Positions 4,769-45,977 are shown, numbered from the stretch's first letter. The stretch: DNA of 64,000 nucleotides from an uncultured delta proteobacterium (GCA_963712535.1 CAVQIK010000017.1:2451-66450); one strand, 5' to 3'. Translations and numbers: made by a program. Notes: generated by a model from the letters alone, not told the origin.

Positions 4769-5250
4769 GGATCATCTCCCATTTAGTTGAGGAAAACAGG
4801 GCGGTATAGTTAAATTGTTCTGTGATTCCAGGGGCCCGAAAGAAAAGCCAGATTGCGCCACAATCATGAGGCACGTATCCCTACTTGGTTCTGGCGGGGG
4901 TGTTCCTCTATCCTCTGAACCCATGCTTTTCATGCCCCCGCTGGGCTTTGCGGAAGACCATTCATTCCTTTGATTGAAGCTCTATCCCGCCAATGCTTGT
5001 GGCCCAATCTGGCTTTTCTTCCGGGCCCTTGTGAGGCTTTCAGTGAATATTCGATCAACTATAGTGAACGTCATAAATAATTTGTCATCGCCAACTCAAC
5101 TCCAATGACCTGTGGGCTGCAGAAATCCCCCCGCGCCCCCCTTTATTAAAGGGGGGTTGGAAGGATTTCGGGAGATGACTGGCTTGATCCCCGTGGTTCT
5201 CTGTTAACGTCGACTTACTTCTGTCGTCTCCTATAAATGGGAGATGATCT
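4769..5250 (+). mobile_element. 310-bp MITE family A, copy 1 (interrupted by a nested family B MITE)
   Basis: TIR GGATCATCTCCCATTT / AAATGGGAGATGATCT; flanks TCTTTTAA / TCTTTTTA (7/8 TSD); homologous to 14377, 47721 and 56546. Confidence 0.85.
5062..5233 (+). mobile_element. 172-bp TA-targeting MITE family B (IS630-like) with internal REP hairpin
   Basis: TA duplicated at 5060-61 and 5234-35; removing it restores the family A end CAACTAAAT; near-identical reverse copy at 23488-23659. Confidence 0.85.
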
Positions 5251-9785: not shown

Positions 9786-9938
9786 TAGTGAACGGCTTAA
9801 GTAAGTCGACATCCAGTTGCCTCTTATTGACTTATGTCTCGCCGTAAAATCCCCCCTGCCCCCCTTTGATAAAGGGGGGTTTGGGGGGATTTACCAGGGA
9901 TTGCCCATGCAATGTCCACTTTCTTTGGTCGGGCACTA
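9786..9938 (+). mobile_element. MITE family B variant (153 bp) with internal REP hairpin
   Basis: TA|TAGTGAACGGC...GGGCACTA|TA; internal AATCCCCCCTGCCCCCCTTTGATAAAGGGGGG. Confidence 0.75.
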
Positions 9939-10897: not shown

Positions 10898-10948
10898 CAG
10901 AAATCCCCCCCGCCCCCCTTTATCAAAGGGGGGAAGGGGGGATTTCTG
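10898..10948. repeat. CAGAAATCCCC...CCCCTTT/AAAGGGG...GGATTTCTG REP hairpin
   Basis: Same family as the hairpins in MITE B and next to the DUF559 gene. Confidence 0.75.
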
Positions 10949-22752: not shown

Positions 22753-22913
22753 TAGTGAACGGCTTAAATAAAGTGACATTGGACGAGCGCTCATTGCGAT
22801 TTAAAAATTTCCATACAAAATCCCCCCTTGCCCCCCTTTAATAAAGGGGGGATGGGGGGATTTCTCTTGAGAAAGCTGCACATGCAATGACTACTTTCTT
22901 TTGTCGTCCACTA
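22753..22913 (+). mobile_element. MITE family B variant (161 bp)
   Basis: TA|TAGTGAACGGC...GTCGTCCACTA|TA; internal CCCCCCTTTAATAAAGGGGGG hairpin. Confidence 0.8.
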
Positions 22914-23487: not shown

Positions 23488-23659
23488 TAGGAGACGACAG
23501 AAGTAAGTCGACGTTAACAGGGAACCACGGGGATCAACCCAGTCATCTCCCGAAATCCCCCCAACCCCCCTTTAATAAAGGGGGGCGCGGGGGGATTTCT
23601 GCAGCCCACAGGACATTGGAGTTGAGTTGGCGATGACAAATTATTTATGACGTTCACTA
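23488..23659 (-). mobile_element. MITE family B (172 bp), reverse copy of 5062-5233
   Basis: Near-identical reverse complement; TA on both flanks. Confidence 0.85.
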
Positions 23660-36761: not shown

Positions 36762-36814
36762 TTCACCCCCACCCAAACCCTCCCCCCTCGAGGGGGAGGG
36801 GCGGGGTGGGGGAG
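36762..36814. repeat. CCCTCCCCC-N5-GGGGGAGGG REP hairpin
   Basis: Intact version of the hairpin that is interrupted at 45394-45905. Confidence 0.75.
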
Positions 36815-36899
36815 ATTGATTTCCTGCCGGGCTCGGATAATAAACACAGAATCTTTGTAACTGTTTACTTTTAACTGTTTCAGAATTGCCAGGAAACCT

Positions 36900-45333: not shown

Positions 45334-45398
45334 GGCGGGTCCTCCGGCACACAAGAATTTAAATTTTTATCACCCCCGCCCTCACTCTCCCCCGTCGA

Positions 45399-45900
45399 GG
45401 GCATAAGCGCTAACTTAGGATTTTTTTCTTCAATTCCCCCCTTTGCAAAGGGGGGCCAGGGGGGATTTCTGCTGATAGGTTCTCTTTAAGGGTACGGTAG
45501 ATAACCTCCGCCACCGCCTCCCTTTCCTTCAGAACTTCTCTGCTGGTAAATCGCAAGACTTTGAACCCAAGAGAGGCCAAATAGTCATCGCGATTTTTAT
45601 CTTTCTTGGCTTGTTTTTCTTCCACGTGCTGTGATCCATCAACTTCTATGACCCACTTTGCCCGTGGCGCGAAGAAATCCACGATATATTCGCCAATGGG
45701 TTTCTGACGATAAAATTGGACACCAAGGACCTGTTTACTCCGCAATCCTGACCAAAGAGCTCTTTCGCTCTCTGTCAAATTACTTCGCAATTGGCGGGAT
45801 CTGGCTTTGAGATTTGCCCAGTACTTCAACACGGCTCGGCTCCCACTGAAAATCCCCCCTCCCCCTTTTTCAAAGGGGGGTTAAGTTAGCGCCTATGCCC
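45399..45900. mobile_element. 502-bp non-autonomous element carrying DUF559
   Basis: 19-bp TIR GGGCATAAGCGCTAACTTA / TAAGTTAGCGCCTATGCCC (18/19); 5-bp TSD GTCGA at 45394-98 and 45901-05. Confidence 0.85.
45410..45832 (-). CDS. DUF559 (Vsr-like PD-(D/E)xK) endonuclease domain protein
   Basis: LRSNLTESERALW..LR..Q..G.QFYRQKPIGEYIVDF..VIEVDGSQH..D..RD..L..GFKVLRF. Confidence 0.9.
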   Translation of the reverse strand: MLKYWANLKARSRQLRSNLTESERALWSGLRSKQVLGVQFYRQKPIGEYIVDFFAPRAKWVIEVDGSQHVEEKQAKKDKNRDDYLASLGFKVLRFTSREVLKEREAVAEVIYRTLKENLSAEIPPGPPLQRGELKKKILS

Positions 45901-45977
45901 GTCGAGGGGGAGAGTAAGTTTGGGTCTCGGGATGTGGACTAAATTTCCCATTGACTGTACCCTTTCTGCTCTTCCCT

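Follow-up and report, generated by a model that had tools for sequence, protein, structure and literature searches.

Among bacterial genes accompanied by hairpin repeats, the closest described system is that of the RAYT genes and their repetitive extragenic palindromic (REP) sequences, in which a single, vertically kept gene for a small nuclease of the Y1 HUH type (PF01797) is flanked by inverted hairpin repeats that carry a GTAG/CGTC tag and are dispersed in hundreds, inverted doublets included. Here we describe an element found in a 64,000-nucleotide stretch of DNA from an uncultured delta proteobacterium (GCA_963712535.1 CAVQIK010000017.1:2451-66450; hereafter the window), which resembles this system in having a small nuclease gene flanked by inverted hairpin repeats, likewise dispersed in hundreds and also arranged as inverted doublets. 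It differs in that the nuclease is of the PD-(D/E)xK type (DUF559), in that the gene is present as 15 copies plus fragments within a shell of terminal inverted repeats (TIRs) and target-site duplications (TSDs), in that the repeat lacks the tag, and in that the 12 Y1 genes of the same genome are not near these repeats. A first-pass annotation of the window had proposed a RAYT-like system built on another nuclease fold; the flanking repeats agree with that proposal, whereas a single domesticated gene does not, the gene being multicopy within its TIR shell.

Insertion sequences (ISs) provide further comparisons. Those that target REP sequences, such as ISPpu9 and IS1397, also insert in REP hairpins with a short duplication, but they encode DEDD or DDE transposases and exceed 1 kb, whereas the present unit has 502 bp and encodes a Vsr-like nuclease only. 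Like classical ISs it has TIRs, here of 19 bp, and TSDs, here of 5 bp and different from copy to copy, but it lacks a transposase of known family. Mobile insertion cassettes (MICs) and miniature inverted-repeat transposable elements (MITEs) with cargo are similar in their TIRs and TSD, the lack of a recognisable transposase and the existence of miniatures without an open reading frame (ORF). In contrast to these, no TIR-matched cognate IS was found here in the genome of the window (G000) or in genomes G212-G216, the cargo is under purifying selection at the level of the element, and it possesses inverted end-units of its own that are conserved across phyla. The nuclease fold itself recurs in I-Bth0305I (PDB 3R3P), described in PMC3239194 as a dimer that cuts a pseudopalindrome and leaves 2-base 5' overhangs. 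That enzyme, too, is the product of a selfish gene; it is, however, a two-domain protein encoded in a phage group I intron, and homing leaves neither TIRs nor a TSD.

The element of the window is a real and so far undescribed nuclease-only mobile element. The literature searched, with supplementary files outside its scope, held no earlier description of a DUF559-hairpin element; publications on DUF559, judged by title or abstract, included none on mobility, and none was found that deals with both repetitive extragenic palindromic sequences and very short patch repair. For the tail motif of the element's own repeats, GGGGGGATTT, the matches listed were irrelevant.

Results

A 502-bp element in the loop of a REP hairpin

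The mobile unit and its surroundings (Table 1) are arranged in the order CTCACTCTCCCCC-GTCGA / GGGCATAAGCGCTAACTTA ... TAAGTTAGCGCCTATGCCC / GTCGA-GGGGGAGAGTAAG. Its two TIRs match at 18/19 positions, and the duplicated pentamer is the loop of a hairpin of the REP1 family whose arms have been split by the insertion. An intact, unoccupied relative of this hairpin lies nearby; it is two-tiered and its DNA fold reaches -23.5 kcal/mol (z -4.4). The sole sizeable reading frame of the unit encodes a DUF559 nuclease. It starts with GTG, seven bases past a GGGAG Shine-Dalgarno (SD) sequence, where relatives have ATG at the same position, runs through one of two internal hairpins and takes its stop codon, TAG (45410-45412), from the left TIR. 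In all these respects, from the TIRs and duplication to the split target and the borrowed stop codon, the first-pass annotation was accurate, as it was in calling the element transposase-less, with DUF559 as its single ORF; 15 such copies exist in REP loops.

The internal hairpin, H, has the form CCCCCCTTT-loop-AAAGGGGGG and, followed by nn-GGGGGGATTT, makes up R, a unit of 32 nt whose inverted copies bracket the ORF. The layout on the coding strand is TIR-H-n-GGGGGGATTT-SD-ORF-AAATCCCCCC-nnn-H-spacer-TIR: the 5' unit R reads H-n-GGGGGGATTT, with the start codon 17 nt beyond its end, and the 3' unit R' reads AAATCCCCCC-nnn-H, its tail being translated as EIPPGPPLQRGE. This bracketing had been recognised in the first-pass annotation, which had taken target and bracketing hairpins alike for REPs; that identity needs correction, as the two internal hairpins are distinct from the target REP, the two families being unrelated. 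A hairpin with the arms CCCCCTTT/AAAGGGGG does recur in the window, although a regular-expression search placed it at seven other loci (5136, 9859, 10913, 22831, 23565, 36907 and 39140) and not at the eight claimed. A consensus scan of the element revealed neither promoter nor terminator, and a match to twister-P1 of Rfam was dismissed as being at chance level (E 0.37).

Table 1. Features of the element, its target and related repeats, numbered from the first letter of the window
Feature	Position	Strand	Remarks
Left arm of split target hairpin (REP1 family)	45381-45393	+	CTCACTCTCCCCC; pairs with 45906-45918 at 12/13
TSD copy 1	45394-45398		GTCGA, loop of target hairpin
Mobile unit	45399-45900		502 bp; 19-bp TIRs and 5-bp TSD
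Left TIR	45399-45417	+	GGGCATAAGCGCTAACTTA; holds ORF stop codon
DUF559 (Vsr-like PD-(D/E)xK) nuclease ORF	45410-45832	-	140 aa; GTG start
3' end-unit R' of core	45436-45468	+	inner hairpin H 45436-45455 and tail CCAGGGGGGATTT
SD of DUF559 ORF	45840-45844		GGGAG
5' end-unit R of core	45850-45880	+	AAATCCCCCCT and inner hairpin H 45861-45880
Right TIR	45882-45900	+	TAAGTTAGCGCCTATGCCC
TSD copy 2	45901-45905		GTCGA
Right arm of split target hairpin	45906-45918	+	GGGGGAGAGTAAG
Unoccupied REP1 target hairpin, two-tier	36762-36816	+	outer stem CACCCCCACCC/GGGTGGGGG
Inner stem of unoccupied REP1 hairpin	36778-36800		CCCTCCCCC-CTCGA-GGGGGAGGG
Solo full module (tail'-H-tail)	9848-9891	+	within another MITE; DNA fold -21.3 kcal/mol, z -4.2
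Further solo full modules	10902-10944, 22819-22862, 23554-23597		
Half-unit	5124-5144		

Copies and target in the host genome

The genome of the window (5.95 Mb in 22 contigs, rated 75.6% complete) contains 15 full-length copies of the element, 502-504 bp long and 96-100% identical, 13 of which retain an intact DUF559 ORF. All 15 occupy the apical loop of hairpins of the form CCCTCCCCC-N5-GGGGGAGGG and take either orientation relative to the asymmetric outer tier of REP1. The 5-bp TSD is perfect in 11/15 copies and in two more when a register shift of 1 nt is allowed; one of the remaining TSDs has a single mismatch and one is degenerate. TSDs vary by copy (GTCGA, GTCAA, TCGAC, GTTGC, TCGAG, GCGGA, CTTTG, CTCGC and GCAAG), and these pentamers are the commonest loops among the 135 intact REP1 hairpins found genome-wide. 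When the genome was scanned for insertions between REP1 arms accompanied by a duplication, 53 candidates were obtained; 14 carry the TIR of the element, and the other 39 have unrelated ends with 4-6-nt matches as expected by chance.

Contigs assembled from public sequencing runs start and stop precisely at 45399 and 45900, their loose ends continue into other REP1 hairpins, and in run X1 the depth over the element is 37.7 versus 4-6 on its flanks. Near-identical words of this DNA are present in 20 runs from 13 studies. One contig from an RNA library (X18) covers 45715-45900 and enters another REP1 arm, which is no proof of transcription. The locus is a multicopy insertion, and its structure is far beyond chance.

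Several candidate arrangements were discarded. Two contig joints ('skips 392' and 'go back') contain other letters between their sides and involve other repeats, and the intergenic parts of C8/C9, considered as an empty and filled pair, are unrelated. At C11:146503-147473, an element truncated after ~250 bp abuts a DDE_Tnp_1-type frame, the joint open frame having 546 codons; either the insertion of an IS or a deletion is the probable cause.

R units bracket DUF559 genes in about ten phyla

Relatives of the protein (49-72% identity) were gathered from one-genome-per-species contigs, yielding 80 loci. Their titles name Desulfobacterota, 'Deltaproteobacteria', NC10/Methylomirabilota, Gamma- and Betaproteobacteria, Dehalococcoidia/Chloroflexota, Bacteroidetes, Omnitrophota, Binatia, Latescibacterota, Myxococcales and Caldithrix, a patchy distribution over about ten phyla. 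A strict R motif was found in the correct orientation upstream of the gene at 36/80 loci, at the 3' end at 42/80 and on both sides at 23/80; with a relaxed motif the corresponding figures were 60/80, 62/80 and 43/80, and at least one correctly oriented unit was present at 79/80. Units in the wrong orientation were seen at 4/80 and 3/80 loci, and the far-flank background amounted to 10 units per 162 kb, or 0.01 per 160 bp, so that the hairpin enrichment anticipated by the first-pass annotation is evident around DUF559 genes of this clade. The spacing is constant: most upstream units end 8-19 nt ahead of the start codon, and most downstream units begin 30 nt short of the point where the protein match ends.

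Translation of the hairpin yields the C-terminal peptide EIPPGPPLKKGG. In the hairpin codons the third-position entropy is ~0.5, versus 1.34 in amino-acid-conserved columns of the protein body, and the frame read through the motif differs from locus to locus; taken together with the low confidence of the modelled tail (see below), this indicates selection on the nucleic acid and not on the peptide. R units also bracket the gene in all 15 copies of the host genome. The conserved partner of DUF559 is the 32-nt R end-unit, not the target REP.

The DUF559 family also includes E. coli YcjD and NGO0050 (PDB 3HRL). The reading frame of ycjD, like that of the element, ends in a G-rich hairpin repeat; unlike it, ycjD is single-copy and has neither R units nor a TIR shell. 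In E. coli K-12 (NC_000913 1351040-1351827; L138 7041-7828), the last codons and stop of ycjD lie in CACCCTCTCCC-TGAAAGAG-CGAGGGGG. An apparent remnant of a second DUF559 3' end, METVLENIRQGLNR..., follows ~60 nt past the gene, and beyond it there is a CCCCTC..GGGAGAGGGTTAGGGTGAGGGG repeat similar to the target REP in the window. The repeats by ycjD are presumably those known as BoxC.

An older core in a lineage-specific shell

The 19-bp shell TIR was scored in 80 metagenome loci according to protein identity. At identities of at least 65% it was present upstream in 18/23 and downstream in 14/20; between 60 and 65% these fractions were 6/29 and 3/25, and below 60% they were 1/22 and 1/24. Complete metagenome elements measure 504-509 bp, the exceptions being two loci of 533 bp and a doubtful pair of TIR matches, 628 bp apart, with four and two mismatches. 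Most complete elements sit in REP1-like loops. The 533-bp loci (L162/L163) contain an extra hairpin-plus-tail insert in the 3' end-unit, a unit nested in itself. Among 12 aligned elements (dS, synonymous divergence, 0.7-3), the TIRs, H and the tails are nearly invariant, and spacers and synonymous sites have diverged. Because distant relatives possess the R-ORF-R' core without the shell, the core is the older part and the shell a lineage-specific outer layer.

Distinct substitutions among the 15 copies of the host genome comprise 20 that are nonsynonymous and 5 that are synonymous; there are also two frameshifts, and the copies decay neutrally after insertion. Between shell-bearing lineages, by contrast, the median ratio of nonsynonymous to synonymous divergence (dN/dS) is 0.16 (53 pairs, range 0.08-0.31; residues 2-117). 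Neutral decay within a genome combined with strong constraint between lineages is the pattern of a protein on which the spread of its own element depends, and inert cargo present in 15 copies is hard to reconcile with it.

The DUF559 protein

Residues 7-115 match Pfam DUF559 (PF04480) with an E-value of 3.9e-36 and 123.7 bits, versus a cut-off of 20.6. Within the core E-x-D-G-x-x-H (motif EVDGSQH), the residues E63, D65, G66 and H69 do not vary among 22 sequences; by analogy with Vsr and I-Bth0305I, we infer catalytic roles for E63, D65 and H69. The core residues align to those of 3HRL (PDB match, E 2.8e-25), a profile of I-Bth0305I (3R3P) is hit at E 0.005, and the match to NCBIfam PRK09767 (E 8.5e-23) is under the family cut-off. 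The Vsr hidden Markov model (PF03852) gave no match, Pfam returning DUF559 and a sub-threshold MTES_1575 only, and the JGI name 'very-short-patch-repair endonuclease' borne by relatives was set aside as an automatic label. No transposase match for the ORF was obtained in Pfam or NCBIfam, PADLOC gave weak hits to DpdF, mREase_II and HEase, and no methyltransferase gene neighbours the nuclease in the element, which holds one ORF. In the structure prediction, the confidence (pLDDT, predicted local distance difference test) is 60 overall and below 50 for residues 119-140; the protein is a bare 117-aa domain with a hairpin-encoded, probably disordered tail.

All small DUF559 genes in the host genome are copies of this element. 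The sole DUF559 domain outside it, at C10:221753-222067, is a fused form that ends an 876-codon frame.

Dispersed units and ORF-less derivatives

The host genome contains 387 R half-units, compared with 0 for a reversed-pattern control. They are arranged as 138 full modules (tail'-H-tail) and as 17 R-22 nt-R' doublets, and 13 unit pairs at the cassette spacing of ~383 nt are DUF559 elements; cassette-spaced pairs at C11:20598 and C12:184368 were rejected as chance neighbours from other MITEs. Half-units are mostly located inside other MITEs, modules and doublets being found in several unrelated MITE-like families that have TIRs of their own, and the R unit seems to have entered several unrelated repeats. 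The solo modules of the window (the four of Table 1 and one at 5124-5156) sit centrally in other MITE-like families, one of which is ~150 bp long with TATAGTG...CACTATA ends; another family, of ~220 bp, carries an R-22nt-R' doublet beside its left end. In genome G059, an R unit and a degenerate R' lie within another TIR-bearing MITE, and these copies look like ORF-deleted cores. The same genome has R units with two or three tandem tails at a 25-nt period (e.g. L231, L221), and its host MITE is ~230 bp long with ends GGGTCTGCGACAAATTTATGG.

Two kinds of derivative retain the shell. Minis of 77-80 bp have the structure TIR-spacer-H-TIR, which is that of the full element minus tail-ORF-tail-H, and both they and derivatives of 326 bp occupy separate sites with TSDs of their own. 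Genome G212, reached via an NC10-titled locus, contains a full element, three copies at contig ends and an 80-bp mini whose TSD is CGCGT, all with the sequence of that lineage. As the minis of G000 and G212 each carry the sequence of their own lineage, hairpin recombination, by deletion or insertion, has taken place in two lineages independently. The 326-bp derivative occurs at C10:251837-252162 and, in the opposite orientation, at C5:270759-271084, with the TSD GCGAG at both sites and flanks that are similar over ~135 nt on the left and 31 nt on the right; the pair could stem from an in-place TIR inversion after duplication or from two insertions into paralogous hairpins.

Search for a transposase partner

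Scanning G000 for the TIR with up to 4 mismatches gave 46 hits. Fifteen pairs are 483-485 bp apart, two pairs at 307 bp are the 326-bp derivative, and pairs at 58 and 61 bp are the 77- and 80-bp minis; there is also one pair at 114 bp and one, rearranged, at 494 bp, and the unpaired hits comprise two solo ends and two at chance level. No larger element bounded by these TIRs was found in G000 at this threshold, nor did self-comparison of the genome reveal any multicopy IS of at least 600 bp; the 2.6-kb repeats that it returned correspond to segmental duplications and to domains repeated in tandem within large proteins. Nine DDE_Tnp_1 hits are present in G000, together with 12 hits to Y1_Tnp (PF01797, IS200/RAYT-like), eleven of them in frames of 180-440 codons (for example C15:543053, C5:372807 and C7:15756); an R unit or REP1 hairpin was found within 2.5 kb of 0/12 of these Y1 genes.

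The same TIR scan of G212-G216 returned only full elements, one 80-bp mini and unpaired ends, some of which fall at contig ends. Other elements with this TIR do therefore exist, in the form of minis and 326-bp derivatives, and none in G000 or G212-G216 bears a transposase; a cognate autonomous IS with the same TIRs was not found in any of these assemblies, which, being incomplete, cannot demonstrate its absence.

Association of units and DUF559 across genomes

In 201 genomes of the phylum, with protein hits accepted up to E 1e-5, half-units were detected in 42 and DUF559 in 54. Both were present in 25 genomes and neither in 130; 17 had only the unit and 29 only the protein, which corresponds to an odds ratio of ~6.6 among genomes that, being kin, are not independent.

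Discussion

The anatomy of the locus, together with the selection acting on its gene, leads us to propose that the nuclease is the element's own mobility enzyme. The ancient core is a DUF559 gene between inverted R units, which would act as IS-like terminal repeats, and the shell of this lineage, with its 19-bp TIRs, lands in the apical loop of the two-tier REP of the host and duplicates the 5-nt loop. The nuclease would act in the manner of the Vsr-fold homing endonuclease I-Bth0305I, cutting palindromic DNA with 5' overhangs; its substrate might be the boundaries of the target loop and/or the hairpin ends of the element, and host repair and recombination would finish the copying. Recombination between hairpins would give rise to ORF-less minis, R-spacer-R' MITEs and solo modules, all of which could be served in trans. 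The DNA cut by the enzyme and the rejoining of strands are the parts of this mechanism that we infer, and we regard the chances as evenly balanced that the DUF559 nuclease works for its own element by cutting the palindromic target and/or the hairpin ends, with host repair completing the copy.

A number of points weigh against this proposal. TIRs combined with a TSD of fixed length are characteristic of DDE transposases, strand joining is beyond a nuclease on its own, and we know of no transposon that encodes a PD-(D/E)xK enzyme only. Neither an empty-site joint nor a TIR-to-TIR circle junction was seen in the contigs of four public runs, although contigs cannot show absence. Three unpaired TIR-like ends in G213/G214 have an unrelated interior and lie in REP1-like targets, which gives a hint of the shell forming a MITE family of its own, and an unlinked transposase could be missing from G000 because that assembly is rated 75.6% complete. 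Finally, 17 of the 42 unit-bearing genomes have no DUF559 hit, and a PF04480 match is absent from five unit-rich genomes (25-157 half-units), the one inspected being G059. The correlation between repeats and DUF559 suggested by the first-pass annotation holds as an association of presence and fails as an obligate one, and its further suggestion that DUF559 mobilises the dispersed hairpins is not supported. The objection from missing genes is weakened because short-read metagenome-assembled genomes may drop 500-bp repeats and binning discards short contigs; DUF559 relatives are mostly found on short contigs, the longest exceeding 2.5 kb in only 37 of the 120 relatives listed. The G059 copies, which resemble cores that have lost their ORF, soften the objection too.

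The hints of an independent shell lead to an alternative in which the element is a mobile insertion cassette: the shell would be a non-autonomous MITE moved by a DDE transposase, unlinked and so far unseen, with a preference for REP loops, and DUF559 would be cargo or helper, which may have entered the central hairpin of the shell by recombination and may aid its retention, for example by homing-like cutting of empty sites. MICs are a described class, and the TIRs with a 5-bp TSD, the ORF-less derivatives (minis and the 326-bp form), which occupy separate sites and have TSDs of their own, the shell-like ends around a different interior in G213/G214 and the nine DDE_Tnp_1 hits of G000 all agree with such an origin. 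So does the existence of REP-targeting ISs, of which IS1397 is one. Another, ISPpu9, is described as such in PMC8450116. Against this explanation stand the lack of a TIR-matched transposase element in G000 or G212-G216, a dN/dS of 0.16 on a 15-copy gene, which is hard to explain if the protein is useless to the element, a link between shell and gene that holds down to ~62% protein identity, and the R-ORF-R' core without shell in most of the distant loci; we consider the cassette possible but doubtful. A further alternative treats the hairpins as expression signals, a promoter and structures at the mRNA end, around a hitch-hiking host repair or defence nuclease. In most loci the 5' unit does end 8-19 nt ahead of the start codon, its loop TTGAAA resembles, by eye, a -35 box, and DpdF, mREase_II and HEase are weakly hit in PADLOC. 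Yet the element has no consensus promoter or terminator, a gene useful to the host is unlikely to be kept as 15 decaying copies, and the TSDs, the conservation of the TIRs and the solo units are left unexplained, which makes this idea very improbable.

The analogy with RAYT is plausible, if unproven. In its full form, DUF559 would chiefly mobilise the 35-45-nt modules and the REPIN-like R-spacer-R' doublets, its own multiplication being secondary, an explanation that overlaps with our proposal of an element-borne mobility enzyme. It draws on the abundance of half-units, full modules and R-22nt-R' doublets in G000 (387, 138 and 17, respectively), on the embedding of units in several unrelated MITE families, which implies that the unit itself moves, and on DUF559 being the only gene flanked by units in G000, where the Y1 genes are not near them; the association across the 201 genomes (odds ratio ~6.6) points in the same direction, although it is overstated because kin are not independent. 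The unit-rich genomes without any DUF559 speak against it, and modules could spread merely as parts of the MITEs that carry them. On balance we hold this full form to be unlikely.

DUF559 is a large family of unassigned role for which a structure has been solved, and a conserved DNA partner suggests what the family is for. The sequence-defined partner, consisting of the R unit, the shell TIR and the REP loop, makes DUF559 function open to a direct cleavage experiment. If the nuclease drives mobility, the element would represent a mechanism of transposition or homing that uses the fold of restriction enzymes, and a possible mobiliser for hairpin repeats without RAYT. With 502 bp, one gene and a defined target, it would be about the smallest self-mobilising element and a handy system for the study of hairpin target choice. 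Only tentatively, and with more doubt than confidence, do we suggest that this DUF559 clade stands at the origin of a new class of transposable elements in prokaryotes, ISs of ~480 bp with a Vsr-fold nuclease only and hairpin-plus-tail ends, which seed REP-like repeats independently of RAYT. If that were true, DUF559 proteins at large, including E. coli YcjD by its BoxC-like hairpins, would be selfish hairpin-directed nucleases.

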